Shown here piece by piece: positions 10,935-63,955 of a DNA stretch of 64,000 bases. The DNA comes from an uncultured Planctomycetales bacterium. GTDB taxonomy: Bacteria > Planctomycetota > Phycisphaerae > UBA1845 > Fen-1342. The stretch is taken from contig CAYXIO010000010.1 of the NCBI GenBank assembly GCA_964465125.1, positions 9,244 through 73,243 of the forward strand. The letters run 5' to 3'. The notes beneath the pieces were generated by a model. That model had not been told where the DNA came from. It was given only the letters and a program-made list of their open reading frames with translations, and searched no databases. Position 1 is the stretch's first letter. Each line of letters opens with the position of its first letter. A program made the translations under genes and the position numbers.

Positions 10935-11018
10935 GCCCGGATGGCGGAATTGGCAGACGCGCCAGGTTGAGGGCCTGGTGAGGGCAACCTCGTGCTGGTT
11001 CGAATCCAGTTCCGGGCA
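10935..11018 (+). tRNA. tRNA-Leu (anticodon GAG), long variable arm
   Basis: Hand-folded. Acceptor gcccgga/tccgggc, anticodon stem ccagg/cctgg with loop ttGAGgg, variable arm, T-arm gctgg-ttcgaat-ccagt, discriminator A. Confidence 0.9.
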
Positions 11019-11023
11019 GAAAC

Positions 11024-11097
11024 GCGCTGCTAGCTCAACTGGATAGAGCGTCGGCCTACGGAGCCGAAGGTTAGGGGTTCGAATCCCTTGCGGCGCG
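11024..11097 (+). tRNA. tRNA-Arg (anticodon ACG)
   Basis: Hand-folded. Acceptor gcgctgc/gcggcgc, D-arm gctc-aactggata-gagc, anticodon stem tcggc/gccga with loop ctACGga, T-arm agggg-ttcgaat-ccctt. Confidence 0.9.
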
Positions 11098-11153
11098 ATT
11101 GGGCGGGCGGGGGAAACGGGTCGAGTGGTCCCGCGTCGGCGCGGCCCGGGAGT

Positions 11154-11247
11154 CAGTTGAAAAAGGGTACAGGCACCGCTGAAAGCCCCACTGGCGCCGC
11201 CGCGAAAGCGTCTTGCCGCGGAGCCAGTCCCCTTTTTCAACGGACTG
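11154..11247 (+). repeat. MITE-like palindromic element, family D, copy 1
   Basis: cagttgaaaaaggg...cccctttttcaacggactg with terminal inverted repeats gttgaaaaaggg. A near-identical reverse-complement copy is at 62334-62427. Confidence 0.85.
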
Positions 11248-11259
11248 TCGGGCCGGTTC

Positions 11260-25875: not shown

Positions 25876-26000
25876 TACTGCGTCGGTTTTTGGGGCGAGT
25901 TGGGCGTGGAGTTGTCCCGGTTTCGCACCGGCGGGACGCCGATGCTCCCGGCGCACGAGGGCGAAACCCGGCGTAGAATGCCCCGCGCGGGGCGAAGCTG

Positions 26001-28871: not shown

Positions 28872-28942
28872 GTGGAGCACGGACTATCAGTCCGTGCGTG
28901 GAGCACAGAGTGTGTGGAGCACAGACTATTAGTCTGTGCGAC
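28872..28942. repeat. Family B palindromic repeat cluster (2 full copies plus 1 partial)
   Basis: gtggagcacggactatcagtccgtgcg, tggagcacagagtgtg (partial) and tggagcacagactattagtctgtgcgac. The core is the 20-nt palindrome gcacagacta-tcagtctgtgc. Confidence 0.85.
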
Positions 28943-30203: not shown

Positions 30204-30870
30204 CGAAACGCCCGTCCCGCATGTGCCGCACGCGGTCGGCCTGTACCGCGAGCTGCTCGTTGTGCGTAATCATCACGATCGTCTGGCCGTCCCGGCGGTG
30301 AAACTCGGTCAGCAACTCCAGCACGCCGGCCGCATTGGCGGAATCGAGATTCCCGGTCGGCTCGTCGGCCAGCAGCAGCGCGGGACGGCCGATCACGGCG
30401 CGCGCCAGGGCGACCCGCTGCTGTTGCCCCACCGAAAGCTGGCCGGGTTTCTTGTGTTCGACGCCGGTGAGTCCGACGCGCGCGAGCATCTCCGTCACTT
30501 GTCCGTCCGCCGCCACGCCGCGCAGTTGCAGCGGCAGCGCGACATTGCGGCGGACGTTCAGCGTGCGCAGCAGATTGAAGCGCTGGAAGACGAAGCCGAG
30601 GGCCGCGCGGCGCAGGCGCGTGCGGCCAGCTTCGTCGAGCGCGGGGGCGTCGTGCCCGGCGATGCGCAGGGTTTGCGCCCGCGTCGGCGTGAGCATCAGC
30701 CCGAGGATGTTGAGCAGGGTCGTCTTGCCGCAGCCGGACGGTCCCATGATGACGACGAACTCGCCTCGGCGGACATGGAAATCCAGGCCGTGCAGCACCG
30801 GCTCCACGACGCCGCCGTGCGTGTAGGCGTGGTGCAGGTCGCGCACGTCGATCATCAGGTCAGCGGTCAT
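30196..30870 (-). CDS. ABC transporter ATP-binding protein, LolD/MacB type
   Basis: [38 protein letters not shown]. Confidence 0.88.
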
Positions 30871-32036
30871 TCGGTGCTCAGGGCGACGGCGGGGTCAAGT
30901 CGGGCGGCGCGGTAGCCGGGATAGAGCGCGCTGAGGACGCCCCCGACGACGCCGATGACGATCGCGAGCGCGAGCGCGCGAAGCTCAAGTTCGACGGTCA
31001 GGAGCGGCTTGTAGAGCAGGAGACCGCCGCGGGCCGCGCAGGCGAGCGTAAGACCAAGCGCGACGCCGCCCAGCGAGATGAGCAGCGCTTCGTGTATCGC
31101 CAGTCGGATCAGCCCCGCGCGCCCGACGCCGAGGGCTTTGAGAACGCCGATTTCGCGCGTGCGTTCGATGATGGCCGTGTACATCGTCAGGAGGATGAAA
31201 AGGAAGCAGGCGACGAGGGCCACGCCGCTGGAGGCGTTCAGGTAGAGATTGACCTGCGCGAAGCTGTCGCGCAGCAGCCGCCCGTAGTCGCTTTTCAACT
31301 CGACGCGCACGTCGGTGCCCAGCTCGCGCTGGAAACGCTCGGCCGCGGCCAACGGGTCCAACCCCGGGCGGAGTTTGAGGAAGTACATGCTGGCGCTGGG
31401 CTCGCCGGAGACGACGATCTCGCGGAGCGTTTCGAGCGGGGCGAAGACGCGCCCGGCGACGCCGGCTTCGACGACGCCGACGATGCGGAAGGCCTGTCCC
31501 ATGATCTGGATTTCGTCGCCCGGGTGATAGTCCCCGACGCGCTGGAGGCGCTCGTCGATCACGAGTTCCCTGGGGAGCATGGGCCTCTGGCCCGTGCGAT
31601 CCGTCGGGTCTGCCGCAACGGAGGCGCCAAGCTCAAAGAGCCGGCCTTGCAAAACCCGCCGCGGGCCTAGAAACGCCGGCATCTGCCGCGGATCGACCCC
31701 GAACAGTCGCTGTTGCTGCCCACCCATCCGCACTTGTCCGAAGAACACGGGCACGACGTCCGCGGCCAATGGTCCGTGTTCATCGGCGGACCGGCGCAGG
31801 TGTTCTGCGTGTCCCCGGCGAAACGGGGCCCCGTTGGTGAAGATGACGTTCTCCTGGGCGGGCAGGACGACCAACTCGGCGTCAACGCTTTGCATGCGCT
31901 GATCGACCTCGGCGAGCGACCCGCTCGCCAAGCCGCGCGAGACGAGCATGAGCATGATGCCGATGCCCACGGCCAGCGCGCTGAGCAGGCTGCGGAGCTT
32001 GTGGTGCGTCAGGTTGGCCCAGGCGAGGGCAAACAC
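30867..32036 (-). CDS. FtsX-like (MacB/LolCE-type) ABC permease
   Basis: N-terminal TM segment, large periplasmic domain, then C-terminal FtsX 3-TM block (TREIGVLKALGVGRAGLIRL...). ATGA overlap with the downstream ATPase. It contains family A repeat copy A1. Confidence 0.8.
   Translation of the reverse strand: MFALAWANLTHHKLRSLLSALAVGIGIMLMLVSRGLASGSLAEVDQRMQSVDAELVVLPAQENVIFTNGAPFRRGHAEHLRRSADEHGPLAADVVPVFFGQVRMGGQQQRLFGVDPRQMPAFLGPRRVLQGRLFELGASVAADPTDRTGQRPMLPRELVIDERLQRVGDYHPGDEIQIMGQAFRIVGVVEAGVAGRVFAPLETLREIVVSGEPSASMYFLKLRPGLDPLAAAERFQRELGTDVRVELKSDYGRLLRDSFAQVNLYLNASSGVALVACFLFILLTMYTAIIERTREIGVLKALGVGRAGLIRLAIHEALLISLGGVALGLTLACAARGGLLLYKPLLTVELELRALALAIVIGVVGGVLSALYPGYRAARLDPAVALSTE
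31572..31599 (+). repeat. Family A repeat copy inside the permease CDS
   Basis: ggggagcatgggcctctggcccgtgcga. On the coding (minus) strand it is translated as RTGQRPMLP. Confidence 0.8.
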
Positions 32037-32414
32037 GGGCCGCAGTGTAAAGTTCAGCGTGTGAAGTTGAAAGCCGCTCGGCGGACGGCGCGCGGTGGAC
32101 GGGCGTCACCGGCCTACGTGGCGCATCGCGCGCGCGGCCCGTCTACGTTTGGGCCGTGCCGCCGCGCGCTTTAACGCCGCCGGTGCGCCGCGCGCCGCGC
32201 GAGCGGGCGACGGCTCCCGGCGTTTCCGCGTACGAAGTGCGTAAACCACGGATCGGCGGTGGGTTATGGACTGGCGCCGCCGCGGTGCGCACTTCGCAGG
32301 TTGGCCGCGGATCGTGGTAGACTGCCGCAACCGGTCACTAGCGCGGCCGGTATAAGGCGTGGGCGCGGAGATGCCGCGCGCCGTGCTCCACCCCGCGCGA
32401 ACCTGGAGAACGTC

Positions 32415-34094
32415 ATGGCGATTGGCGAAGCGCTTGTCGCGAAGGGTCTGATCACCGCCGAGCAACTCAAGCTGGCGCTGGCGGCCCGCACGTCGCCGAA
32501 CGAGCGGGTCGATCAAATCCTGTTGCGGCAACAACTTATCGCCGAGAAGGACCTGATCGCGGTCTTCAGCGAGCAGCTCATGATTCCGGTCGTCGAGCTG
32601 ACCGAGTCGGAGATCGATCGGGACTTGCTGGGCCTCATCCCGAGCCGGCTGGTCCATAAGTACTGCCTGATGCCGGTCGCCAAGAACGGGAAGGGCGTCC
32701 GCGTCGCGACCGCCGACCCGTACAACATGTACGCCCTCGACGAGGTCCGCACCTGCATCAACATGGCGGTCGAGCCGGTCCTCGCCACCAAGGCCGAGAT
32801 TCAGCGGATGATCCGCGTGTTCTACGGCGTGGGCGGGGACGTGATCCAGGAGATGGTGCAGGAGGCGGGGGAACTTGAGATTCTCGACGAGCACAAAGTC
32901 GAGTCGGAAGACCTCGACATTCAGATGGCCCAGGAAGCCTCGGTCATCAAGCTCGTCAACGAGATTCTCATCGAGGCGATCGACCAGCGGGCCAGCGACA
33001 TCCACTTCGAGCCGTTCGAGGGCGATTTCCAGGTGCGCTACCGCATCGACGGCGTGCTGCACATCGCCAACGTGCCCGCCGAAATCCGCAGGTTTCAGAA
33101 CGCCATCGTCAGCCGCATCAAAATCCTGTCCAACCTGAACATCGCCGAGCGGCGGCTGCCGCAGGACGGCGGCTTCAAGATCAAGGCCCACGGCCGCGAG
33201 ATCGACCTGCGCGTCAGCGTGATCGCGATGGCGTTCGGCGAGGGGATCGTCCTGCGTATCCTCGACCGCACGTCGGTCCGCCTGGAACTGAAGTCGCTGG
33301 GCATGGAGGGTCCGGCGCACGACACGTTCATGGACCTGATCAACCGTCCGCACGGCATTCTGCTGGTCACCGGACCAACCGGCTCGGGCAAGACCACGAC
33401 GCTGTACGGCGCGCTGCGGGCCATTGTCAGCCCCGAGCTGAAAATCCTGACGATTGAAGACCCGATCGAATACTACCTGGACGGCATCAACCAGACGCAG
33501 ATTCTGCCGAAGATCGGGCTCACGTTTGCGCGGGCCCTGCGGAGCTTTCTGCGGCACGACCCGGACGTGATCCTGGTCGGCGAAATTCGCGACAAAGAGA
33601 CCGCCGAAGTCGCGATCAACGCGTCGCTCACGGGCCACCTGGTCTTCAGTACGCTGCACACCAACGATGCCGTCACCGCCACGACGCGTCTGCTCGACAT
33701 GGGCGTCGAACCGTTCCTGGTCTCCAGCTCGCTCGAAGCGGTGCTCGCGCAGCGGCTCGTCCGCGTCATCTGCAAGCACTGCAAAGAGGAGTACGTCCAT
33801 GAGAACCCCGCGCAGCTTCCGCCGGATTTCGGCTACCAGCGCGGCGACCGGCTGTGGCGCGGCCGCGGGTGCAAGGAATGTCGCAACACGGGCTTCTCCG
33901 GCCGGCGGGCGCTCTTTGAGCTGCTGGTGATGACCGACGAGTTGCGGGAGATGGTCTTGCAGCAGGCGTCGGCGGCACAGCTTCAGAACACGGCCGTGCA
34001 GCACGGCCTGGTGCTGATGCGTGAAGCCGGCTGGGACCTCTGCCGCCGTGGGCTGACCACGCCGCAGGAGGTGCTGCGGGTGACGAAGGCGTAA
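32415..34094 (+). CDS. Type II/IV secretion ATPase (GspE/PilB family)
   Basis: GGAGA precedes ATG 32415. T2SSE_N-type N-terminus, Walker A GPTGSGKTTT, DPDVILVGEIRD, tetracysteine CKHCKEEY...CKECRNTGFSGR. Confidence 0.9.
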   Translation: MAIGEALVAKGLITAEQLKLALAARTSPNERVDQILLRQQLIAEKDLIAVFSEQLMIPVVELTESEIDRDLLGLIPSRLVHKYCLMPVAKNGKGVRVATADPYNMYALDEVRTCINMAVEPVLATKAEIQRMIRVFYGVGGDVIQEMVQEAGELEILDEHKVESEDLDIQMAQEASVIKLVNEILIEAIDQRASDIHFEPFEGDFQVRYRIDGVLHIANVPAEIRRFQNAIVSRIKILSNLNIAERRLPQDGGFKIKAHGREIDLRVSVIAMAFGEGIVLRILDRTSVRLELKSLGMEGPAHDTFMDLINRPHGILLVTGPTGSGKTTTLYGALRAIVSPELKILTIEDPIEYYLDGINQTQILPKIGLTFARALRSFLRHDPDVILVGEIRDKETAEVAINASLTGHLVFSTLHTNDAVTATTRLLDMGVEPFLVSSSLEAVLAQRLVRVICKHCKEEYVHENPAQLPPDFGYQRGDRLWRGRGCKECRNTGFSGRRALFELLVMTDELREMVLQQASAAQLQNTAVQHGLVLMREAGWDLCRRGLTTPQEVLRVTKA

Positions 34095-34130
34095 ACGAAA
34101 CGGGGAGCCGGCAACGCAGCGCCGGTGTCG

Positions 34131-34158
34131 TGGAGCACAGACGATTCGTCCGTGCGAG
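34131..34158. repeat. Family B repeat copy (hairpin) just after the pilB/gspE stop
   Basis: tggagcacagacgattcgtccgtgcgag, with imperfect arms gcacagacg/cgtccgtgc. Confidence 0.7.
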
Positions 34159-39431: not shown

Positions 39432-42005
39432 TTAGCCCGCTGGTGTCTTGGTGTTCCGGGCGCTCCGGGTCGCCTGGCGCGTGCCTTTTCGTGCGCGGCA
39501 CAGCGCGATGGTCGAGATCGTCTTCACCCCCGCCAGCAGCAACGCCGTGCTCGCCAGGCCGAACACCGGCACCAGCAACACGCCGCACACCAGCGCCCCC
39601 AGGCACGCCCCCGCGTGGTCGGCCCCGACGATCACGCCCGCCGCGGCCCCCGCCCCCGGCGTCAGCGCCAGTTGGGCGCGACCGGCCAACGCGAACGCCG
39701 CCCCACCCAGCAACCCGGTCAGGACGACCAGCCCCGAGATGGTCACTTCGACGATCGTCAGCGCGGCGGCGGCGGTCTGCAAGCCTGCCAGCCACCGCAG
39801 GATGTACGGCACGGCGAACGCCAGCCCGGCGAGCAGCACGTCAAGCAGCGCAAGCCGCGTGAAGTGGCTGCGTCTTTCACCCCCGGCGCGGGGCACGAGC
39901 GCACAGCCGAGCACCAGCCCGCCCATGAACAACGCCACGATCCACCCGATGCGCTGGTAGACGAAGCCGTAGAGGTTCTGGAACGCGAAGAGCCAGAGGA
40001 TGCTGAGCGCCATCGTCGCAAACCCCGTGCTCGCCACGGAGTACAGCAGTGCGCCGCGGGCCCACCCGGTTGCCGCGCCGTGGCGCAGACGCGGCAGCAC
40101 GAGCGTAAGCAGTGCCACGACGCCGATGCTCAGGGCCACGTCGCGCACGCGCAGCGAACTCAGCCACGCGACCACCTGCGTCCGTCCGGTCGCCGCTTCC
40201 CACAACGCCAGCCGCTGCATCAGCAGCGTCGAACGCCAGTCTGAATGAACGCTCGGTGTGTCCGCGGCGTCGAGTTCCGCGCGACGTGCCGCCACCTTGT
40301 CCGGCGTGAGCCAGTCCGTCGCCCCCGCGAACCAGGCCGGATCGAAAAGCGGGGCCGTGATCGCGCGGCGTCCGTAGCGGGCCGCCAACTCATCCGGGGC
40401 GGTGGTCAGCAACCCCGGCCGCGTTGCGGCGAAGATGTACGCTGGATCGCCCCAACTCACCAGAACTTCGGGAAACGCCGTCCGCAGCGTGGCCCGCAGC
40501 GTGCCCAGGTACCCGCGGGCCGCAGGCGTTAGATTGGTCGGTGTGGCCGCGGCGGTCAGGCAGACGACCGCGTCCGCCGTCAGCACACGGCGCAGCTCCG
40601 CGAAGAATTCCGTCGTGTACAGCCGCGCGCGCAGGGCGGTGGTCGGCTCCGGCAGGCGGGCGAGAACGAGATCGAACTGCGCGTGTTGGGTTTTCACGAA
40701 GTAGCGCGCGTCGGCGTGGTGGACCGTGACGCGCGGGTCGGCAAGCGCGGCACGATCCACTTCCGCCAGGAATGGGGCGATCATCTCAAGCTGCCGCGCG
40801 TCGGTCTCGACGTAATCCACGTGTTCCAGCGGGTGCCGCAGGATTTCCGCCAGCAGCCCTTCCGCCCCGCCGCCGATGAGCAGGACCCGCCGCGGCTGCG
40901 GGTGTTCGCACAGCCAGAAGTGCGCCAGCGGGACGTAGGTGTACGGATCGGGGAAGTCCGCGGCGACGTGTCCGTCGCAGTACAGCGTGTACTGCCCGGC
41001 CCGCCGGCCGACGGCGAGGTTTTGGTACTTCGACTCGGCGGTCGCGACCAGCTCGTAGCCGGGCGCGGTGTGGCGCCAGCGCAGCTCGAGCAGGCGTTGC
41101 TCGATGGTCCGCCCGGCGGCGGCAGCGCAGGCGAAACCCAGCAGCGCGACCGCGACCAAAGTGCGTGCGACGCCGCTTCTTGCCGCTAGCGGCACGCAGG
41201 CCGCCGCCGTCAGCACGCCGCACAGCGCGACGAGCTGGGTGGGCGGAAATCGCTCGACGGCCCAGAAGCTGAACGCCGCCCCGCCGACCAGGCTGCCGAG
41301 CGCTTCGAGGGCGTACACCTGCCCCAGCGCGAGCGCCGCACTCGCGCCCTCGTGGCGGCCCGCACCCCGCGCGGCCGCGGCGGACGCGATCGGCCGCTGT
41401 CCATTGGGCCTTTCGTCGCGTGCGTTGCACAGACTGATAGTCTGTGCTCCACCAGATGCGTCGCGCAGACTGATAGTCTGTGCTCCACCGGATGCGTCGC
41501 ACAGACTGATAGTCTGTGCTCCACTCCGAGGGAACTTGCCCCTTTGAATGGCGCACGCCAACGGAAACGCCACCCCCACGAGCATCCCCACCGGTGTCAC
41601 CAGCACGGCGCCGGCTAACGCGACGCGCGGCAGAGGGAGCAGTTCTCCCGGTCCGACGCCCAGCCAGGCCCGCGCCCCGCGAAACGCACACAACTCGACG
41701 CCGGCGACGACGGGTAGCGCCAGCAAGACCGCGCTCAGCAGGGCCACGGCCTTTCCTTGCACGCGCTCCGCCACCCGGCCGCCGGCGGCGCCGCCCAGCG
41801 CCACCCCCGCCAGCCAGGCACACAGCACCAACCCCCACGCAAACTCGCTACCGTACAGCAGCACGGTTGCCTCGCGCAGCAGCAGCGCTTGCAGCACCAG
41901 CGCTTGAATCCCCCAGACAATGACAACCGCCGCCAGCCACAGACACGCCGCCCGACCGCCGGACTTCGCGTCCGACGGGCTGTAGTCCTCAACCGCGGGC
42001 GGCAT
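39432..42005 (-). CDS. Fused polytopic membrane / spermidine-synthase-like (SpeE-fold) protein
   Basis: N- and C-terminal multi-TM blocks flank VLLIGGGAEGLLAEILRHPLEHVDYVETDARQLE...DPRVTVHHADARYFV...FDLVLARLPEP. It contains an in-frame 3 x 36-bp family B array. Confidence 0.7.
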   Translation of the reverse strand: MPPAVEDYSPSDAKSGGRAACLWLAAVVIVWGIQALVLQALLLREATVLLYGSEFAWGLVLCAWLAGVALGGAAGGRVAERVQGKAVALLSAVLLALPVVAGVELCAFRGARAWLGVGPGELLPLPRVALAGAVLVTPVGMLVGVAFPLACAIQRGKFPRSGAQTISLCDASGGAQTISLRDASGGAQTISLCNARDERPNGQRPIASAAAARGAGRHEGASAALALGQVYALEALGSLVGGAAFSFWAVERFPPTQLVALCGVLTAAACVPLAARSGVARTLVAVALLGFACAAAAGRTIEQRLLELRWRHTAPGYELVATAESKYQNLAVGRRAGQYTLYCDGHVAADFPDPYTYVPLAHFWLCEHPQPRRVLLIGGGAEGLLAEILRHPLEHVDYVETDARQLEMIAPFLAEVDRAALADPRVTVHHADARYFVKTQHAQFDLVLARLPEPTTALRARLYTTEFFAELRRVLTADAVVCLTAAATPTNLTPAARGYLGTLRATLRTAFPEVLVSWGDPAYIFAATRPGLLTTAPDELAARYGRRAITAPLFDPAWFAGATDWLTPDKVAARRAELDAADTPSVHSDWRSTLLMQRLALWEAATGRTQVVAWLSSLRVRDVALSIGVVALLTLVLPRLRHGAATGWARGALLYSVASTGFATMALSILWLFAFQNLYGFVYQRIGWIVALFMGGLVLGCALVPRAGGERRSHFTRLALLDVLLAGLAFAVPYILRWLAGLQTAAAALTIVEVTISGLVVLTGLLGGAAFALAGRAQLALTPGAGAAAGVIVGADHAGACLGALVCGVLLVPVFGLASTALLLAGVKTISTIALCRARKGTRQATRSARNTKTPAG
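41424..41527. repeat. Three tandem 36-bp units of the family B palindrome inside the CDS
   Basis: Units start at 41427, 41463 and 41499 (gc[ag]cagactgatagtctgtgctccac...). They are translated as GAQTISLCDASG / GAQTISLRDASG / GAQTISLCNARD. Confidence 0.9.
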
Positions 42006-42067: not shown

Positions 42068-42790
42068 ATGCCCACCTTCTTCGCACGCCGGTACTTTCGG
42101 CCGGTCGCGGCGGTCAGCCGCACCGAGCAAGCTGTCGGTGCCTTCATTCTGCTGCTGCTGGCGGTCATTTTCGGCGGCATGGCGTGGCACGTGCGCTCGG
42201 ACCGTGACGACCCGTTTGCCCCCGTGCTCGTCGGCGAACCCGCCCGCGCCTGGCAGTTTCCGGAGCTGCCGGGCTGGCAGCCGCCCGAAGCCGCGGAACA
42301 CTACGCCTCGGATGAGCTGTACCTGAAGATCAACGGTCGGGCGGAGTTTTACCTTCAACATCAGGTCACGGGCCTGGTCTTTGGGACATATACCCATGTG
42401 CTGAACCCGGACCGGACGATCGATGTCTACTGCTACACGATGCGCACAGCGGAGGCCGCCCGTGCCGCGTACGAGGCGGAGAAACCCGCGGACGGCATCG
42501 CTCTTGACAGCGACGCCACGGGTTATACATCGGCGGGTGCCGTGTTTGCCTGCGTCGCCGCACACTACCTTCAGGTGTTGCCCGCCCGCGAAGCCGCGGA
42601 GGACGCCGCCGCCGCACGCGACTTGATGGTCCGCCTGTCTGCCGCGGTGCTGAATGGATGTGCGCGAATGGGGGGCGCCTGTCCGAGCCGCGAGCGCAAG
42701 CTCGCGGACATACTGGCGACCGCTCGCGCGGTCGGCTCGGATCTGCGCGGCCGAATCGCGCACGGTGCTTTAGGTCTTGGCCAGCCGTGA
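42068..42790 (+). CDS. Membrane-anchored protein of unknown function, first gene of the DUF362/polyferredoxin operon
   Basis: N-terminal TM segment AVGAFILLLLAVIFGGMAW. Its last ~40 codons are encoded by family C repeat copy 1. Its stop overlaps the next ATG (GTGATG). Confidence 0.55.
   Translation: MPTFFARRYFRPVAAVSRTEQAVGAFILLLLAVIFGGMAWHVRSDRDDPFAPVLVGEPARAWQFPELPGWQPPEAAEHYASDELYLKINGRAEFYLQHQVTGLVFGTYTHVLNPDRTIDVYCYTMRTAEAARAAYEAEKPADGIALDSDATGYTSAGAVFACVAAHYLQVLPAREAAEDAAAARDLMVRLSAAVLNGCARMGGACPSRERKLADILATARAVGSDLRGRIAHGALGLGQP
42649..42767 (+). repeat. MITE-like 119-nt palindromic element, family C, copy 1
   Basis: gctgaatggatgtgcgcgaatgg...ccgaatcgcgcacggtg. It has internal long inverted symmetry (gtgcgcgaat / attcgcgcac-like ends; gtccgagccgcgagcg / cgctcgcgcggtcggctcgga). 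A second copy is at 60107-60225. Confidence 0.85.
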
Positions 42791-47639: not shown

Positions 47640-47649
47640 CGGCGCTCGC

Positions 47650-47715
47650 GGGGAGCATGGGCCTCCGGCCCGTGCGTGGAGCGCGATTCGCACGGGCCAG
47701 AGGCCCATGCTCCCC
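47650..47715. terminator. Long perfect-type hairpin formed by an inverted pair of family A repeats; candidate bidirectional terminator
   Basis: Arms ggggagcatgggcctccggcccgtgcg (47650-47676) and cgcacgggccagaggcccatgctcccc (47689-47715). It lies between the convergent asd and the 47726 gene. There is no U-tract, so function is inferred only from position. Confidence 0.5.
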
Positions 47716-47725
47716 GTGCGTCTGC

Positions 47726-48847
47726 CTACCGCAAGAAACTCGTCAGCCGCTTGATCGTCAGCCGGTCGCAATCGTCGATGGTCTTGGGTGAGATTTCCTT
47801 GAAGTCCTCCCACTGGTTGTTCTGGAAATCGACGATGACCCAGTCGCCGGACTTTTCGCACAGGACGAAGTGCGTGCCGCCCGCGGGGCCGCCGGCAGGG
47901 TCCACGTAGTAGTCGGCGAGAAGTACGTACGGAGTCTCCGGCGGATTGGCCTTGACCCGCTCGCGAAACGCGCGGGCCAGATCCCAGAGCCGCTTCTGCT
48001 GGTTGCTCGATGGCGCCACGTCGATCCGCATGGGCTGGTCGAGCGCGACGGTCTGGCAGCCGAGCTTCTGCGTGAGGGACTCCGCCAGCCGGGTGGCGCT
48101 CTCCGCGTTCGACGTATCACCAACGCGCGTCGCGTAGACGCCGATCCGCGCCGCCTTCAGATCGGCTTTCAATTTCTCCACCCGCTGCTTCATCGCGTCG
48201 CGCTCGGCGTCGCTGGGTGTGCCGGACTTCTCGGCCCAGAGGCGCGCGAACTTGCCCTCGCCTTTGGCCGCGCGGCCGTTCTTCTTCCAGTGCAGTTGCG
48301 AGAAAACCCGTTCGGCGACGAGGGCTGAGCAGCCCATCGGGTCCGGATCGGCCCCGGCGGTGCGCTTGAAGTCGGCGTCCTTGGGCGTTTGGCGATCGCG
48401 GATTACAAGCTGGCCGGACGCGTCGGCGATCAGCCAGCGCACCTCGGTTGGGCCGGTCTTCGGCTCGCCCAGATACTCCGCGTACAGCGCGTAAGCCGTC
48501 TTCGGCGGGTTCTGCTTGAGAAACTCGCCGAAGCGGGCCGGCATTTCTTCCCACGTGGTGTCCGCGGCGGGATTGAACTCGCCGGCGGCGCTCTCGAGGT
48601 TCGACATGCCGTGCTTCTCGAGCATCAGTCCAACGGCGTCGCCGACGTTGCGGTTGGGTTTGCCGACGACGCGCACCGGGTAGATCGTCAGCGTCGCGGC
48701 GGGGCCGGCGGCCTGGAGGGCCGCGAGCCGCTGAGCGGCGTCAGCGCCAGGCTGGGACTGTGCTTGCGCCGCGGGCGCCACGCCCAGCGCAACGAGTCGC
48801 ACGGCGACCCGCACGACCCCGAGTAAAGAGCACGATCGGTGTGACAT
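47726..48847 (-). CDS. Secreted protein of unknown function with internal duplication
   Basis: AAGGAGA lies 6 nt before ATG 48847. Signal peptide ...LVALGVAPAAQAQ. The two halves share NPP[KE]T.Y.L.A.Y...P ... G..VI.D. Confidence 0.55.
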   Translation of the reverse strand: MSHRSCSLLGVVRVAVRLVALGVAPAAQAQSQPGADAAQRLAALQAAGPAATLTIYPVRVVGKPNRNVGDAVGLMLEKHGMSNLESAAGEFNPAADTTWEEMPARFGEFLKQNPPKTAYALYAEYLGEPKTGPTEVRWLIADASGQLVIRDRQTPKDADFKRTAGADPDPMGCSALVAERVFSQLHWKKNGRAAKGEGKFARLWAEKSGTPSDAERDAMKQRVEKLKADLKAARIGVYATRVGDTSNAESATRLAESLTQKLGCQTVALDQPMRIDVAPSSNQQKRLWDLARAFRERVKANPPETPYVLLADYYVDPAGGPAGGTHFVLCEKSGDWVIVDFQNNQWEDFKEISPKTIDDCDRLTIKRLTSFLR

Positions 48848-51149: not shown

Positions 51150-51323
51150 ATGAAGAAGAAGACTGCACCTCCAGAAGATCCCGTCGTGGCCGAAGTGCGT
51201 GCGATCCGGCGGAAGATCTGGAAGGAGGCCGGTGGGACGTTCGAGGGCCTCCAGCGCTACCTGGACCGCGTGGTTCCAGTCGCCAAGCCGCGCCGCCCCA
51301 AGCGGGTGCGGCCTCGGCCTTGA
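51150..51323 (+). CDS. Small basic protein of unknown function
   Basis: GGAGG lies 6 nt before the ATG. MKKKTAPPEDPVVAEVRAIRRKIWKEAGG... Its stop overlaps the candidate uvrA start. Confidence 0.45.
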   Translation: MKKKTAPPEDPVVAEVRAIRRKIWKEAGGTFEGLQRYLDRVVPVAKPRRPKRVRPRP

Positions 51324-54300
51324 TCCGTGAGCGCCGCGTGCAGGGGAGGCACGGGAGACCGCACGCTCAGGCCGCCCAGGGAGCGCGGCGTACCAACGGC
51401 GCGGTCCCCTGGCTCACCGTGCGCGGGGCCACCCATAACAACCTCAAGCACATCGACGTGCGCTTCCCGCTCGGGCGGTTTGTGGGCGTCACGGGCGTCT
51501 CCGGCTCGGGCAAGAGCTCGCTGGTCAACGACATCCTCTACGCCGCGCTCGCCCGTGAGTTGAACAAGGCCACGACACTTGAACCCGGCCCACACGCCGG
51601 CCTCGACGGCCTCCCGCACCTCGACAAGGTCATCGCGATCGACCAGTCGCCGATCGGCCGCACGCCGCGCAGCAACCCGGCGACGTACATCAAGGTCTTC
51701 GACGAAATCCGCGACCTGTTCGCCGAGCTGCCGGACGCGAAGCTGCGCGGTTACAAGCCGGGGCGGTTCAGCTTCAACGTGGCGACGGCGCGTGGCGGGG
51801 GGCGCTGCGAGGCGTGCGAGGGCAACGGGGCCAACCGCATCGAGATGGACTTCCTGGCGGACGTGTGGGTGACCTGCCCGGTGTGCGAAGGCCGGCGGTT
51901 CAGCCGCGAAACGCTCCAGATGCACTTCAAGGGCCAGTCGATCCAGGACGTGCTCGAAATGGAGGTCGGCGCGGCGCTCGAATTGTTCGAAAACCAGGGC
52001 CGCATTCGCAACATGCTCCAGACGCTGCACGACGTGGGGCTCGACTACATCAAGCTCGGGCAGTCGAGCACGACGCTCTCCGGCGGCGAGGCGCAGCGCA
52101 TCAAGCTGGCCCGCGAGCTGGTCAAGAAGCCGACCGGCCGGACGCTGTACGTCCTGGACGAACCCACCACCGGCCTGCACTTCGCGGACATCCGCAAGCT
52201 GCTGACGGTGCTGCACAGCTTCGTCGACGCCGGCAACACCGTCGTTGTGATCGAACACAACCTCGACGTGCTCAAGACCGCCGATTGGATCATCGATCTC
52301 GGCCCCGAGGGCGGCGAGGCCGGCGGCGAGGTCGTCGCCGCGGGCACGCCTGAGGACGTGGCGGCGTGTGCGGCGTCGTATACCGGGCAGGCGTTGCGGA
52401 GCGTGCTCGGCGCGAAGTCCGATGTCAGAAGTGTGATAGAAGTCAGAAGTCAGAAGTCAGAGGCCCCGGAGCGCGCTGGGCAAGGCGCGACTGGTACTTC
52501 TGACTTCTCACTTCATACTTCTCACTTCGTTTCTGTCGTCGGCGCGCGCCAGCACAATCTGAAAGACCTCACCGTCTCCTTTCCGCGCGACCGGATGACC
52601 GTCTGCACCGGCGTGTCGGGTTCGGGCAAGACCAGCTTCGCGATCGACACCGTTTTCACGGAGGGCTATCGGCGCTACGTCGAGTCGCTGTCCGCGTACG
52701 CCCGCCAGTTCCTCGGGCAGATGGCCAAGCCGGCGGTGGACCACGTCCACGGCCTGTCGCCGGCCATCTGCATCGAGCAGCGGGCCGCGGGCAAGAGCCC
52801 GCGCTCGACAGTCGGCACCGTCACCGAAATCTACGACTACATGCGCGTCTTGTGGGCCCGCATCGGCACGCGCTACTGCCCGCACTGCGACGTGCCCATC
52901 GGCACGCAGACCGCCGATGAAATCGTCGCGCGCGTCATGGCCCTCGACGAGGGCACGCCGATCATCCTGCTCGCCCCTATCACGCTGGGCGACGGCGAAT
53001 CGTACGCGGGGCTGTTCAACCGGCTGAAAGCATCGGGCTACACACGTGTGCGGATCGACGGCGAGATTCGCCTGACGGCCCACGCTGCAACGCTCGATGT
53101 CCGCCGCAAGCACCGCGTCGAAGTGGTCGTCGATCGGACGGTCGTACGCGGCAAGTCGCGCGGCCGGATCGCCGAGAGCATCGAGCACGCGCTCTCGCTC
53201 GGCAATGGCGTGATGACGTTGCTCGTCGAGGCCGTGGAGACGGTTGCGGAAGAGGGGCACGAAGGCACGAAGGCACGAAGGCACGAAGGGGAGCATCGGC
53301 CTCCGGCCGGTGCGGTTGGGGAGCATGGGCCTCCGGCCCGTGCAGATGTGAGCGAGGACGGAGAGCCGGGCCCATCCGTTCCCACCTTCCCACCTTCCCA
53401 CGTGCTCACGACTCCCGCCCGCGAATTCATGTACTCGCAGAAGCTCGTCTGCACCCGCTGCGGCACGAGCTTCGAGGAACTCGGCCCCCACCACTTCAGC
53501 TTCAACAGCCCGCTGGGCTGGTGCGAAACGTGCGAGGGCCTCGGCGTGCAACGCGGGGCGCCCGCCGCCGCCATCATCGCCCGGCCCAATCGCACGCTGT
53601 TCGACGGGGCCATCGCCGGCTGGGCACGCATCGAGCGGCGTTCACCGCTGGGCCGTCTGCTGACGAAACTGTGCGAGCACCTGGGGGTGGGCCCCGAAAC
53701 GCCGCTGCGCGACTGGACCGCGGAGCAACGCCGGACGCTGATGTTCGGCGCGGACGGCGGCACGTGGCTCGACGGCGGCGCGCTGTCCGCGGGCGTCCGC
53801 TTCGGCTGGCGGGGTTTTTTCCCCACGATCGACCACGCCACGCGCACTTCGTGGTCGTTCCGGCACCAACTCCGCCACGTGGTCACCGAGATTCCCTGCG
53901 TGACCTGTCGCGGCGGACGCCTGCGGCCGGACGCGGCGGCGGTGCGGCTCGGCGAGGCGTCGATCGTGAAGGTCTGCGAGCTGCCGCTGGCGCAGGCGGC
54001 GGCGTTCTTCCGCGACCTGAAGCTCGACGCCCGCGCGCGGCGGATCGCCGGCGAGTTGCTCAAGGAGACCCGCGATCGCCTCCAGTTTCTGCTGGACGTG
54101 GGGTTGGACTACCTGACGTTGCACCGCGCCGCGCCGACGCTGTCCGGCGGCGAAGCGCAGCGGATTCGGCTCGCCAGTCAGATCGGCAGCGGGCTGTCCG
54201 GCGTTTTGTACGTGTTGGATGAGCCGACGATCGGCTTGCACCCGCGCGACACGCAACGGCTCGTCGATGCGCTGCTCAAGCTGCGTGACTTGGGGAACAC

Positions 54301-56314
54301 GCTGCTGCTGGTCGAACACGACCGCGACGTGATCCGCCGAGCGGATCGGCTGCTGGACTTCGGTCCCGGCGCGGGGGTCACCGGCGGCCGGATCGTCGCG
54401 CAAGGCGTGCCCGCCGAGTTCGTCGGGGAGCATCGGCCTCCGGCCGGTGTGGCTGTCGGCGAAGCTGAAGAGGCGCCCGAGTCTCTGACGCGCGGCTACC
54501 TGTCCGGTCAGATCGCGATTCCGATCCCGCGGAATCGCCGGCCGGTGGACCACGAAACGACCTGGCTCGTCGTCCGCGGCGCGCGGCAGAACAACCTCAA
54601 GCACATCGATGTGCCCATCCCGCTTGGCCGGTTCGTCTGCATTACCGGCGTTTCCGGCTCCGGCAAGAGTTCACTGGTCAGCGACATCCTCTGGCCGGCC
54701 CTGGCCAACACGTTAAACAACGCGAGCCTGACGGTCGGCGACCACGACGACATCGAAGTCGGCACGCGGTCGAGTGCAGATGGCCCCTTCGTCGCTGCAT
54801 CGCTGCGGCGCTTCTTCGCGCGGCGCGGCGACGCGGCCATCGACAAGGTCATCAACGTCGACCAGTCGCCGATCGGCACCACGCCCACCAGCAACCCGGC
54901 CACCTACACCGGCGTCTTCGACGGCATCCGCGAGCTGTTCGCCCGGCTGCCCGACTCGAAGATGCGCGGCTACAACGCCAACCGCTTCAGCTTCAACCGC
55001 CCCGGCGGGCGCTGCGAACCGTGCGAGGGCTACGGCCAGCGGCGGATCGAGATGCACTTCATGCCCGACGTGTGGGTCGAGTGCGACACCTGTCGCGGGC
55101 GGCGTTACAACCCCGAGACGCTCGCGGTGCGCTTCAAGGGCAAGAACATCGCCGACGTGCTCGACCTACGGGTCAACGAGGCCCTGGAATTGTTCGCGAA
55201 CGTGCCGCGGCTGCGGCGGATGCTCCAGACGCTTGCCGACGTCGGCTTGGATTACGTGCAGCTCGGGCAGCCGGCGCCGACGCTCTCCGGGGGCGAGGCG
55301 CAGCGCGTGAAGCTGGCCGCGGAGTTGGGTCAGCCCGACACCGGCCGCACGTTCTACATTCTCGATGAGCCGACCACGGGGCTGCACTTCGACGACATCC
55401 GCAAGCTGCTGAGCGTGATCCACCGGCTCGTCGATCTGGGCAACTCCGTCCTCGTCGTTGAGCACAACCTCGACGTGCTGAAGTGCGCGGATTGGCTCAT
55501 CGACCTCGGCCCCGAGGCTGGCGACGATGGCGGGTATATCGTCGCCGCGGGCACGCCCGAGCAGATTGCAAATGCAGAATGCAGAAGGAAGAATGCAGAA
55601 GAATCGTCCGCCGCGGATGGGGTTTCTGCATTTTGCATTCTGCCTTCGGCATTTGCTTCACATACGGCCGCAGCGCTGCGGCCGGTACTCGCCGCCGGCC
55701 CGTACGAAGACCGCAAGCCCCACGATCCCGCCGCACACGCCGCCCGCACGCTCGCCGCGGAGAAGGCCGGCTTCGGCGACGTGGGCCGCGAGGTGCGGAT
55801 GCCGTGGCAGGTGGACGGCCGCAAGTGGCACCTTGAGCAGCGCGGCACGCGCGACGACCAGCCGCGGCGGTGGGAGCCGGCGGCGCTCGAACATGTCGTT
55901 GACCTCGTGCAGAAGACCGGGCGCGCGGCACGACCGAACGGTGCGGACAATCTGTTTGCGGCCACGAATTGGAACGAGCGCGCCAGCGTCGAAATCACCG
56001 CGCCGGAGGCGGCGTACTGGTTCCTGCACGCCCTGACTGGCGGCGAGTGGCTGCTGGAGCTGTACTTCCGCACCCCGCCGGGCACGTTCAAGTGGCGGGC
56101 CTTGGACGCCGAACTCGGCCTGAAGACGCTTGACGAGCGGAAGGATCTGGAGACCTACGGCGATTGGGCGCGGGTGGACGTGCGGCCCCGCGTGGACGGC
56201 TGGGAGGCGGTCGTTGTGTACGTCCACGACCGCACCGAGATCGACACACCCGCGTTCCGCAAGTTCATCAAGCAGGCGGTGGCCGCGTATCAAAAAGGGC
56301 TCGGGCTCGTGTGA
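51320..56314 (+). CDS. uvrA: Oversized excinuclease ABC subunit A: extra N-terminal NBD-II-type module + complete UvrA + ~220-aa C-terminal domain
   Basis: Three Walker A sites are present: [27 protein letters not shown] and [13 protein letters not shown]. There are three LSGGEAQR signatures. UvrA-specific motifs include [37 protein letters not shown], zinc modules CEACEG..CPVCEG and CEPCEG..CDTCRG, and a UvrB-binding-type [17 protein letters not shown]. The start is TTG 51320 or GTG 51338. Confidence 0.88.
   Translation: [1664 protein letters not shown]
52415..52529 (+). repeat. Lower-GC hairpin-forming insert (type G) translated in frame in uvrA
   Basis: The left arm is rich in tcagaag units (gtcagaagtgtgatagaagtcagaagtcagaagtcagagg). 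The right arm is gtacttctgacttctcacttcatacttctcacttcg. A GC-rich spacer separates them. Confidence 0.8.
53257..53405 (+). repeat. Composite insert in uvrA: (gcacgaag)x4 + two family A copies + (ccaccttc)x2
   Basis: 8-mers at 53257-53288. Family A copies at 53288-53314 and 53318-53344. ccaccttc units at 53382-53397. Translated as [48 protein letters not shown]. Confidence 0.85.
54425..54450 (+). repeat. Family A repeat copy in the uvrA NBD-I/NBD-II linker
   Basis: ggggagcatcggcctccggccggtgt, translated as GEHRPPAGV. Confidence 0.8.
55568..55656 (+). repeat. Lower-GC hairpin-forming insert (type H) translated in frame in uvrA
   Basis: Left arm gcaaatgcagaatgcagaaggaagaatgcagaag. Right arm tttctgcattttgcattctgccttcggcatttgc. 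Translated as [30 protein letters not shown]. Confidence 0.8.
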
Positions 56315-57449: not shown

Positions 57450-57861
57450 GGTCACACACCTCCTTCGTTGACCATTTCCACGCCGCCGCGCCGGGACGCA
57501 CCCGTAACGCGCAGCGGCTTCTCACGCGGGCGGCACGCCTTCCGTGGCGTCCGATTCCCTGGCCTGGCCGACCCGCCGGATTCGGGGAGGCATTCGCGAC
57601 AGCGAATCCGACGGTGTCAGTGTACGGTATTTGTTAGGTCATGTAAAGCCCAACCTCACCGCCTTTCGGCGGCGTTCTTCCGCTGGCTCCGCCGCCCTGT
57701 CGCACGAATCGCGATGTTGCATCCGTGAAACATTGCTAGGCGCGCAATCGCCCCATCGGCGGACAAAGCCTGGGGTAAACACCTGTAACATTAGGATTTA
57801 CCCCAATACGCGGAGTCGCTTTGGTGCAGTGACGCAGAATCACCGCATCGTATCTGGGTGC

Positions 57862-57890
57862 GGAGCTGGGGCCTCCGGCCCGTGCGAATC
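57862..57890 (+). repeat. Degenerate family A repeat copy in the radical-SAM leader
   Basis: ggagctggggcctccggcccgtgcgaatc. Confidence 0.65.
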
Positions 57891-58093
57891 CCGGCGCGCG
57901 GCTCGTCGCGCGAACTCGGCACAGATCCGCGCACGTCCGGGTCGACGCAGGCCGGGGCGCGACGTAGAATCTCCCACTGTTGGGCCGGACAGACTGATCA
58001 GGTATGTAGCGCCCGCGCTAGCCAGGAGCCGTGCGCGATCTTCTGGCGCCTGTGCCGGCTGGCGAGCACCTGCGGCGCGCATGAAAGGCAAGC

Positions 58094-60031: not shown

Positions 60032-60106
60032 GGCCCGGTGCGGCTGGCGCGGCGCGCCCGCGGGAGCGGAAGGGCTCATGGCGCATATCCCAGGATCGCC
60101 GCAGCT

Positions 60107-60225
60107 TGCTGAATCAACGTGCGCGCATGGGCGGCGCCTGTCCGAGCCGCGCGCGCCAGCTCGCGGACAAAGTTGCGACCGCTCGCGCGGTCGGCTCGGA
60201 CCTGCGCCGCCGAATCGCGCACGGT
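60107..60225 (+). repeat. MITE-like 119-nt palindromic element, family C, copy 2
   Basis: gctgaatcaacgtgcgcgcatgg...ccgaatcgcgcacggtg. It has the same length and orientation as 42649-42767, with scattered substitutions. Confidence 0.85.
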
Positions 60226-60294
60226 GATTCAGTTTCTGGCAGCGTTCTTGGCAACCGACCCGAGAGATGCCTTATTTGCGACGACTTACGTTAG

Positions 60295-62333: not shown

Positions 62334-62427
62334 CAGTCCGTTGAAAAAGGGGACTGGCTCCGCGGCAAACCGCTTTCGCGGCAGCGCCAGTGGGGCTTTC
62401 AGCGGGGCCCGTGCCCTTTTTCAACGG
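62334..62427 (-). repeat. MITE-like palindromic element, family D, copy 2 (inverted relative to copy 1)
   Basis: cagtccgttgaaaaaggggactggctccgcgg...gtgccctttttcaacgg. It is the reverse complement of 11154-11247 with few differences. Confidence 0.85.
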
Positions 62428-63058
62428 ACGCTTGTGCCTTCGCCAGCAGGCGCATGGCGAATCGCGCGACGGGGGTCCGCGGGTTGGTCTGTTGCCGGCG
62501 CACAAATGCCAACACCTTGCGCCGGCGACAGACGCTCGGCCCCAGCTTCTCGAGCGCGGCGAGCGTCTGTCCGATGGCCACGTTGCGGCACTCGGGCGTT
62601 TCGTAGGTGGCGCTTTCGACAGCCAGCAACACCGGCAGGATGCGGCGGAGGAGGTCGGGCCGACTGTACGCGATGCAGCCGGCGCCCTGAATCGCGTTCG
62701 CGGCGCTGATCAGATTGCCGCCGCGGATGAAAGCCAGATACGTGTCCAGCAGCGCGTCGATCTTGCGCTGACTGTCCGCCGACGCGAGCGCTGCGATGAT
62801 CCGAAGCGCGTTCCAGCGGACGATCTGGCTATCACTCGCCAGCCCGGCCGCGATGGCGTCGAAGTGCGGGTACACCCGACCGGGGTTCTTGGCGGCGGTC
62901 ACGGACAGGGCTTTGCCGGCCGCAAAACGGGCCGACCCCGACGGTGCCGCCAGCTCCTGCACCGCCGCGGGCACCCGCGCCGGCGCAAGCACCCGCGGCG
63001 CGGGGGGTCGCGGGCGCTTTTGCGGTGACATCTTGCGACGTGAAACCGACCGGACCAT
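62399..63058 (-). CDS. Hypothetical helical-repeat (HEAT/ARM-like) protein
   Basis: Repeated amphipathic helices (IVRWNALRIIAALAS, LLRRILPVLLAVES, AIGQTLAALEKLG). The last ~9 codons lie in family D copy 2. An alternative start is 63031. Confidence 0.4.
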   Translation of the reverse strand: MVRSVSRRKMSPQKRPRPPAPRVLAPARVPAAVQELAAPSGSARFAAGKALSVTAAKNPGRVYPHFDAIAAGLASDSQIVRWNALRIIAALASADSQRKIDALLDTYLAFIRGGNLISAANAIQGAGCIAYSRPDLLRRILPVLLAVESATYETPECRNVAIGQTLAALEKLGPSVCRRRKVLAFVRRQQTNPRTPVARFAMRLLAKAQASVEKGHGPR

Positions 63059-63149: not shown

Positions 63150-63283
63150 AAAAAAGGAAAAAAAGGGGACACTACTAATTCCCGCCGGAAAAAAAGGGGG
63201 GGAAAAAAAGGGGACACTACTAATTCCCGCCGGCTTGCTGAGCACGAAACAAGTTGCGAAGAATCAGTAGTGTCCCCTTTTTG
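63150..63283. repeat. A-rich repeat cluster (family E): two direct 31-nt copies plus one inverted partial copy
   Basis: aaaaaaaggggacactactaattcccgccgg at 63158-63188 and 63203-63233. Inverted agtagtgtccccttttt at 63266-63282. It shares the aaaaaggggac end motif with family D. Confidence 0.85.
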
Positions 63284-63822
63284 CGCGCCACGCGGGTCAG
63301 GTCGTGGATGCGCCAGGACGAGACCAGCACGTCCAGCAGGTGCCCGCTGCCGCCGTCGAACAGGGCCAGCAAGTGCGCGACGGGAAAGCCGCAGCCGCGC
63401 TTCTGGCCGGTGGGCTGGCCGAAGTGTTTCCGCAACGCCGGCGTGTCCGGCATCGAGCAGGACGAGCCGTCCACCAGCCAGGTGCGGTGGCCGTGCCAGC
63501 GGGAATCGCAGCGCGCGGCGGTCCGCAGGGCGACGCCGGTCTCGTGCAACAGGCGGCGCAGGGCGGCCAGCGGCAAGCGCTGGCGGGCTTGGCAGTAAGC
63601 CGCCGGCGTGAAACGTTTGCCGCTCAGGCGTGGCAAGTTGGTCATGGCGGTGTTGCCGTGCAGGATTTGGAGGAGGAAAACGTAGATGGTCATCACCGGG
63701 TTGAGGGTGCGGTCGCGCCAGGTGGCGCCGCTCTCGCGGCAGATGCGGGTCAGGTGCTCTTCGGAGAGAAAGGTGGTCCAATCGTCCTTGATCTGCGCCA
63801 GTACGCGGCGGATACTGACCAT
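63220..63822 (-). pseudogene. IS4-type DDE transposase, N-terminal fragment truncated by the family E repeat
   Basis: AGGAGG precedes ATG 63822. TWRDRTLNPVMTIYVFLLQILHGNTAMTNL and HRTWLVDGSSCSMPDTP (first catalytic Asp region) are IS4-like. The reading frame then runs into repeat-derived KKGTLLI and stops. No second or third DDE residues are present. Confidence 0.65.
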
Positions 63823-63955
63823 CCCTGGCCTCCTGTGCGGGTAGTGTTGTTGACACCACCATCTTCACGGGAGGCCGCCTGTTGCGCCAGCGCCGTAAGT
63901 GCTTGCATATCAAGCACTTATAGACTATCTAAATGCCATTCGTGACTGCCCCTGG
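63823..63955 (-). mobile_element. Probable 5' terminal region of the IS remnant
   Basis: The GC drop and the sequence cagtcacgaatggcatttagatagtctataagtgcttgatatgcaagcac (minus strand) upstream of the transposase ATG are typical of an IS end. The other end is not present in the window. Confidence 0.4.

Follow-up and report, generated by a model that had tools for sequence, protein, structure and literature searches.

The 64,000-nt stretch of DNA from an uncultured Planctomycetales bacterium analysed here (contig CAYXIO010000010.1; hereafter the window) contains a gene for a predicted membrane-bound, spermidine-synthase-like protein, the coding sequence of which carries three head-to-tail units of a small hairpin element. 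We regard this array as most probably a passenger, i.e. an old in-frame insertion of a repetitive extragenic palindromic (REP) element that would subsequently have been duplicated locally in tandem. Tandem Repeats Finder delineates the repeat at 41421-41524 with a period of 36, 2.9 copies, 94% matches and zero indels, and the palindromes start at 41427, 41463 and 41499, bearing out the three tandem 36-nt units of exact period that were described in the original prediction, which was made from the letters of the window and its open reading frames (ORFs) (Table 1). Each 36-nt unit is composed of a 26-nt REP (GTGGAGCACAGACTATCAGTCTGTGC) and a 10-nt spacer, and in codon register U1, U2 and U3 translate as SGAQTISLCDAS, GGAQTISLRDAS and GGAQTISLCNAR, respectively. 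The palindrome itself, GCACAGACT-GAT-AGTCTGTGC, measures 21 nt (9-bp arms and a 3-nt loop) and not 20 nt as first given, and 100 dinucleotide-preserving shuffles lead to an expectation of 0 matches to it. The three units are mutually 86-92% alike, with U1 and U2 differing at 3 positions and either of them differing from U3 at 4-5. Across the array, five of the six reading frames are open, the closed one being the plus-strand frame with TGA TAG. A CRISPR-like array was ruled out, as the 10-nt spacers recur from unit to unit, none of them being unique, and as arrays of the same family have only 0-1 nt between units. Searching the whole window against Rfam at gathering thresholds returned two tRNAs only, and nothing at the hairpin element.

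A dispersed hairpin family of the REP type

The units of the array belong to a hairpin family with the consensus GTGGAGCACAGAC[T/G]AT[C/T][A/C]GTCTGTGC. A one-genome-per-species scan for GGAGCACRGACNNNNNGTCYGTGC gave 108 stretches, 77 of which come from one related metagenome-assembled genome (MAG), CAYMXT01, itself assigned to an uncultured Planctomycetales bacterium. The census that follows covers these 77 blocks (512 kb), which were chosen for containing a match, such that the density of copies is overestimated; intergenic positions in them were called with a rough gene call based on GC content at third codon positions (GC3) and codon usage. Within this sample there are 227 family copies at 89 sites, comprising 33 singletons and 56 arrays, which confirms the dispersed, REP-like nature that had been proposed for the palindrome. 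The arrays reach up to 11 copies and are purely head-to-tail in 50 of the 56 cases, with steps of 26 nt (38) and 27 nt (60) predominating over steps of 24, 25, 28, 35, 36, 39, 40 nt and longer, and many of the contigs terminate in such arrays. The GT that precedes GGAG is kept (G in 208/221 and T in 214/221 copies), 95% of stem cells are Watson-Crick (1764/1864, 233 copies counted), and the ninth stem pair covaries, being T-A in 114 copies versus G-C in 98.

The window as a whole holds six full copies and one truncated copy of the family, at three sites. The copy at 28872-28897 (palindrome at 28877) exhibits a double compensatory stem change, GCACGGACT/AGTCCGTGC. Both of the intergenic sites that had been predicted, at 28872-28942 with 2.5 copies and at 34131-34158, were recovered, with extents that differ from those first assigned (Table 1), whereas the degenerate trace reported at 57985-58000 amounts to a half-site of ∼10 nt that is unmatched at <=3 mismatches and was not counted.

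The element has attributes of a REP: it is a short stem-loop, with 9 bp in the stem and 3 nt in the loop of a 26-nt unit, within the 20-40 nt and 6-9 bp typical of such elements; it bears a tetranucleotide tag, GTGG, directly 5′ of AGCAC, with GGAG as an alternative candidate tag; and its many dispersed copies are mostly intergenic (58 of the 89 sites in CAYMXT01). The short hairpin, the 5′ tetranucleotide, the dispersed and mostly intergenic copies and the compensated stems together fit a family of the GTAG-tagged REP superfamily. A second family in the window, family A (GGGGAGCATSGGCCTCCGGCCSGTGC), has the frame GGAGCA...GTGC in common with it. The sequence of the hairpin family (GTGGAGCACAGAC..GTCTGTGC) is absent from the text and examined supplements of the GTAG REP survey of Di Nocera, De Gregorio and Rocco 2013 (PMC3733652), and its 11-nt core (GGAGCACAGAC) was found only in unrelated papers among the literature searched. 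It thus represents a REP family of Planctomycetes (Phycisphaerae-like MAGs) that had not been described before, and its head-to-tail spread might reflect an amplification unlike that of the inverted-doublet REPIN model, e.g. insertion beside an existing copy.

The host protein loop and the sister lineage

The host protein is identical to NCBI protein P0001 (86.6-kb contig) and consists, in order, of seven N-terminal transmembrane (TM) helices, a Spermine_synth domain and C-terminal TM helices. It matches Pfam PF01564 (Spermine_synth) with E=5e-23 and NCBIfam MFS_SpdSyn with 44.8 bits (cutoff 40), with PRK03612 falling under its cutoff, and 400 homologues at E<=1e-10 were retrieved from a large protein collection, mostly from Phycisphaerae and Planctomycetota MAGs. 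Judged by these comparisons, it would be a membrane-bound spermidine-synthase-like protein in which TM bundles are fused to Spermine_synth, collinear with its homologues. The intact 857-aa gene, the Pfam match and the hundreds of collinear homologues are in agreement with the earlier statement that the array is translated through within a real coding sequence. A split into two genes at the array was considered and rejected, as the homologues are collinear even where the loop measures no more than 11 aa, and as the AlphaFold2 model has high confidence before and after the loop.

The array codes for residues 161-196. In an alignment of 22 homologues it is bracketed by two conserved motifs, FPLAC and YALESxGS, in a segment that lacks any conserved column and is highly variable in length. 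Among the 81 homologues with both anchors, the distance from FPLAC to YALESxGS ranges from 11 to 115 aa with a median of 30, and it is 79 aa in the window protein; no other part of the protein family varies as much in length as this loop. The AlphaFold2 model, built on the homologue alignment, has a mean predicted local distance difference test (pLDDT) of 81 and a predicted TM-score (pTM) of 0.83, and residues 157-221, with pLDDT <50, form a low-confidence loop between helices 125-151 and 227-252. These flanking helices uphold the placement of the array in a loop between TM segments, and since the pLDDT drops below 50 between confident helices, the array is seen to code for part of a disordered TM4-TM5 loop in an otherwise intact protein. 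Signs of the topology of the loop conflict, as a positive-inside count by eye indicates a cytoplasmic location, whereas the seven TM helices that precede a presumably cytoplasmic catalytic domain indicate a periplasmic one.

The nearest homologue, P0002 (832 aa, 77% amino acid identity), is found in JGI, Logan and ENA samples, on ∼11 contigs in all, and the upstream synteny of this sister lineage (L001-L006) is the same as in the window (DUF6599, DUF362, Fer4 protein). Exactly one REP copy, GGTGGAGCACAGACGATCAGTCTGTGCGAC, is present there at the orthologous spot and in the same frame, where it is read GAQTISLC. When the DNA of the two lineages is aligned, this copy lies opposite U3, the 3′-most unit, and the 3′ flank is homologous between the lineages. 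Every sister-lineage sequence that covers the loop (the loci of ∼11 contigs, four cluster members) has one copy, giving a copy number of 3 in the window lineage versus 1 in the sister lineage. The spacers of U1 and U2, GACGCATC[C/T]G, resemble both the flank of U3 (AACGCACGCG) and that of L001 (GACGAGCGCG), which shows that the REP was duplicated along with its flank and not re-inserted, and because U1 and U2 are closest to each other, two successive duplications are suggested. A protein search with the 113-aa loop region as query returned nothing, not even P0001, and was treated as uninformative. On a 4.4-kb contig of the sister lineage (P0121, P0123, P0125) the gene is called as 181 aa plus 570 aa with the break inside the loop, downstream of the REP; a frameshift there, or faulty assembly of the loop region, could account for the split call.

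Table 1. Positions of the host gene, the array and other repeat copies in the window, followed by copies within coding sequences of CAYMXT01
Feature	Position	Strand	Remarks
Host gene, predicted membrane-bound spermidine-synthase-like protein, 857 aa	39432..42005	(-)	longest ORF reaches 42086
Array	41418..41525	(-)	three head-to-tail 36-nt units, 12 aa each, in frame
U1	41490-41525	(-)	AGT GGA GCA CAG ACT ATC AGT CTG TGC GAC GCA TCC
U2	41454-41489	(-)	GGT ... CTG CGC GAC GCA TCT
U3	41418-41453	(-)	GGT ... CTG TGC AAC GCA CGC
U1 hairpin	41499..41519	(-)	no mismatch
U2 hairpin	41463..41483	(-)	1 mismatch, T>C, giving A.C in the stem and Cys to Arg
U3 hairpin	41427..41447	(-)	no mismatch; pairs with the one copy in the sister lineage
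Intergenic cluster	28872..28939	(+)	full copy 28872-28897, truncated 5′ half ∼28898-28913, full copy 28914-28939
Degenerate single copy	34130..34155	(+)	begins 36 nt past the stop of gene 32259-34094(+)
Family A, two copies	53287..53343	(+)	in frame in UvrA-like ORF 51320-56314
Family A, single copy	54424-54450		in UvrA-like ORF 51320-56314
Family A, one copy	31571-31597		antisense, in frame (RTGQRPMLPR), in MacB_PCD (MacB-like periplasmic core) of FtsX-type permease 30867-32036(-)
Family A, intergenic	47649-47675, 57859-57885, 14129-14168, 25924-25963, 47689-47728		
L066 (CAYMXT01), glycogen debranching enzyme			between GDE_N and GDE_C; six copies, 27-nt steps, in frame
CAYMXT01, single copy in radical SAM/CofH-like protein			within Radical_SAM domain; Pfam match spanning or flanking
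CAYMXT01, single copy in FeoB			Gate domain; Pfam match spanning or flanking
CAYMXT01, single copy in phosphoglucose isomerase (PGI)			Pfam match spanning or flanking
CAYMXT01, single copy in GT39/PMT_2 glycosyltransferase			Pfam match spanning or flanking
CAYMXT01, single copy in S9-peptidase protein			Pfam match spanning or flanking

Origin of the array and competing explanations

In the scenario that we favour, a REP-type hairpin would have landed in frame in DNA coding for a disordered, length-tolerant loop before the window and sister lineages split, and later, in the window lineage, 36 nt made up of the 26-nt REP and 10 nt of its 3′ flank would have been reiterated twice on the 5′ side. 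Such local tandem duplication may have proceeded by slipped-strand mispairing or unequal recombination, for which hairpin formation would probably have been favourable. Selection on the gene would allow only stop-free duplications with a length of 3n to persist, which should come easily to an element that is open in most frames, and the 36 extra residues would be tolerated as loop filler in an intact protein. A unit length divisible by three had been presented as a property of the element, and this does not hold: the REP is 26 nt long, the 36 nt are the sum of REP and 10-nt flank, and only 35 of the 79 head-to-tail steps between intergenic copies in CAYMXT01 are divisible by three. Both Pfam-verified arrays within coding sequences do have 3n steps (36 nt in the window and 27 nt in L066). 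Given the 26-nt REP, the lengths of the intergenic steps and the open frames, we explain the 36-nt period by selection, which would have filtered local duplications that arose at random.

Several observations weigh against a neutral passenger of this origin. The element is identical at 25/26 nt between the two lineages, compared with 51/86 (59%) for the adjacent loop-coding flank (P=2e-5) and 79% for the whole gene (P=0.018); a neutral passenger is not expected to keep the element so well, and we therefore leave a small probability on a functional reading. Possible sources of this excess conservation are a constraint on the hairpin, homogenisation against copies elsewhere in the genome, or a hotspot at which each lineage recently acquired its own insertion. 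Furthermore, the 5′ flank carries an indel of 7-8 aa between the lineages, such that orthology rests mainly on the 3′ side, and the three-copy allele is known from one contig. Finally, neither the 64-kb window nor the 512 kb of CAYMXT01 blocks yielded a RAYT or Y1 transposase in tblastn searches. The sole link to such an enzyme is a sequence from a Chthoniobacter (Verrucomicrobial) MAG (L010), the Y1_Tnp gene of which (Pfam E=4e-11) has very similar REP doublets of the GGAGCAC type on either side. An association of the hairpin family with RAYT is thus plausible, and the family may have been mobilised by a RAYT-type transposase. In the same Chthoniobacter sequence (L010 26-2305, JANPHJ010000184.1), a 759-aa ORF for the carbamoyl-phosphate synthase large subunit runs uninterrupted across the RAYT-like Y1_Tnp gene and its REP doublets, which form an in-frame insert within the ATP-grasp (CPSase_L_D2) domain.

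The functional reading, which we consider unlikely, holds that the hairpins have a role in the host gene at the mRNA or DNA level, whether by making translation pause between TM4 and TM5, by blocking an RNase or by binding a protein. It draws on the conservation of the element relative to neighbouring codons, on the compensatory stem changes throughout the family and on the folding of the 121-nt array stretch, which is far more stable than that of shuffles (-63.9 kcal/mol and z=-6.3 as RNA, z=-4.2 as DNA). However, stem conservation belongs to the whole dispersed family and need not mean a role in the host gene, U2 has a stem-breaking change, most homologues are without a hairpin in the loop, and no Rfam family matches. 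That the array is not neutral, whether because a population-variable 12-codon copy number tunes the TM4-TM5 loop or because its three hairpins, stable in the mRNA, set the pace of translation and of insertion into the membrane, seems to us decidedly improbable; the one observation that points to it is again the near-perfect conservation of the element versus the 59% of the neighbouring codons.

The original prediction had also raised a contingency or variable-length locus. On this reading, frequent slippage of units would let loop length tune the activity of the membrane protein or its surface properties. The difference in copy number between the two known lineages, the readiness with which the hairpin family makes tandem arrays and the variable loop length across the protein family are in keeping with this idea, yet it has no support at the locus itself and we judge it very improbable. 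The sister lineage is constant at one copy in the sequences that cover the loop, and similarity of only 86-92% between the units lowers slippage; steps of whole 36-nt (12-codon) units keep the frame and cannot switch the gene on and off as in phase variation. The loop is modelled as disordered and is without conserved residues, and the host protein is a predicted housekeeping-type enzyme and not a known surface antigen. Nor did two metagenome scans give anything at the array locus, the locus-specific pattern having 0 matches (in a collection evidently without the JGI contigs L001, L004 and L005) and the family pattern having 5 matches, none of them at the host gene. Lastly, an assembly artefact, in which the assembler expanded or mis-joined the repeat of a genome that truly has one copy or some other structure, is hardly credible: the sequence is a metagenome-assembled contig, the sole one with this allele, and the contig ends in CAYMXT01 indicate that the family troubles assemblers, but the 108-nt array is shorter than the assumed 150-nt reads and could be spanned by single reads, its units differ at 3-5 positions between distinct flanks, unlike a collapsed or expanded perfect repeat, the frame is kept in an otherwise intact gene, and tandem arrays of the family occur in many independent contigs.

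Recurrent in-frame insertions and related systems

The array had been described as unusual, which stands in part only, as in-frame REP insertions recur in this lineage, including the six-copy array with 27-nt steps in L066 (Table 1), and as intragenic REP clusters have been published (PMC3733652). Elements of other kinds occupy the same TM4-TM5 loop, also in frame, in other lineages: a canonical GTAG REPIN, GTAGGGTCCGCCGTGCGGACC ... GGTCCGCACGGCGGACCCTAC, read as GPHGGPY in L115 (homologue P0018), three GTAG REPs in L123, and a (TCATCAC)n heptamer microsatellite at about 945-1095 in L122 (P0059). L115 additionally has a long palindrome, likewise in frame, in another loop of the protein (residues 683-740).

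The UvrA-like ORF of the window, 51320-56314(+), codes for 1664 aa and is read in frame through four or more inserts of palindromic or repeat type (52430-52530, 53256-53401, 54424-54450 and 55561-55653). It exhibits two inverted heptamer arrays, (AGAAGTC)n ... (ACTTCTC)n and (GCAGAAT)n ... (TTCTGCA)n, as well as an octamer array, (GGCACGAA)x4, after which come two family A REPs and, behind these, (TTCCCACC)x3; a further insert is a single family A REP.

Longer repeats are also dispersed in the window, and at least three repeat families are common to the window and CAYMXT01 genomes. A repeat of ∼130 nt, possibly like a miniature inverted-repeat transposable element (MITE), occurs at 42648-42781 and 60107-60240 with 87% identity (inverted arms at 60090-60160 and 60181-60251) and in five CAYMXT01 blocks at 86-93% identity, and one of the window copies lies across the junction of the DUF6599 and DUF362 genes, immediately upstream of the host gene. 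A palindromic repeat of ∼105 nt at 11142-11255 and 62334-62438, the two copies being inverted and 90% complementary, adjoins the tRNA genes at 10935-11097 and is present in CAYMXT01 block L093 as well. Window positions 63287-63948 match CAYMXT01 L012 269-930 at 99.5% over 662 nt, with flanks that differ and are bordered by different short tandem repeats; the stretch overlaps a 200-aa ORF, 63220-63822(-), with a sub-threshold DDE_Tnp_1 match (16.7 bits), and is probably a shared fragment of an insertion sequence (IS). CAYMXT01 could not be established as the window's own genome, the sole near-identical stretch being these IS-like 662 nt with their differing flanks.

Among known systems, Rickettsia palindromic elements (RPEs; Ogata et al. 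2000, as cited in PMC3733652) reportedly occur as in-frame palindromic repeats in many unrelated genes, at positions compatible with the fold and without destroying the genes. RPE-1 elements are about 100-150 bp long and are not usually tandem. Similarly, the array adds a peptide segment by way of an in-frame palindromic repeat with the gene preserved, and as an intragenic insert it is RPE-like in that it is in frame, stop-free and situated in a variable segment with homologues collinear on both sides. In contrast to RPEs, its element is 26 nt long and tandem, and it comes from a different phylum, in a free-living host with a high-GC genome. In-frame variable-number tandem repeats, such as those of the mycobacterial interspersed repetitive unit (MIRU) type, are tandem coding units divisible by three, the copy number of which differs between lineages. 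The unit of the array differs from these in being built on a member of a dispersed hairpin family, and polymorphism of the array is seen only between lineages, as 3 versus 1.

REP singletons that are tandemly reiterated with flanking DNA were described for GTAG REPs by Di Nocera, De Gregorio and Rocco 2013 (PMC3733652), who found intragenic REPs in several species, the highest level being that of the Verrucomicrobium O. terrae and of Rickettsia, the RPEs being the intragenic REPs of the latter. The intragenic clusters encode 43-82 aa, the uvrA genes of other phyla are interrupted by REPs, and variants of the GTAG tag include GTRG, GYRG and GTGG, with GTGG reported for GTAG-20 of O. terrae (PMC3733652). 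The array family has in common with these REPs a stem-loop of ∼26 nt with a 9-bp stem, a 5′ tag, a high and mostly intergenic copy number, tandem reiteration with flank, in-frame clusters in ORFs including uvrA, and occurrence in the Planctomycetes-Verrucomicrobia-Chlamydiae (PVC) superphylum; unlike them, it is mostly head-to-tail at 26-27 nt and not arranged as inverted dimers, and no cognate RAYT was seen in the examined sequence. With the REPIN/RAYT system (Bertels and Rainey 2011, PMC3116915) it shares dispersed hairpins, a conserved 5′ motif and compensated stems, and further likenesses are the same copy at the same site in two lineages (77% protein identity) and the Y1_Tnp gene with REP doublets in L010. 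Whereas REPINs are inverted doublets, the arrays of the family are nearly all purely head-to-tail (50/56), and RAYT was not found in the small part of the genome searched.

The array is therefore a tidy and fairly ordinary example of a documented phenomenon, with a new sequence family, and taken alone it opens no new biological question. An undescribed Planctomycete REP family joins the known cases of REP-decorated proteins, and for annotation this means that such arrays are not to be taken for gene breaks, CRISPR-like arrays or functional peptide repeats. A single loop of one protein family has accepted different repeat elements repeatedly, in different lineages, and the passage from a single copy to a tandem triple would provide a clean two-step example of selfish hairpin DNA lengthening protein loops.

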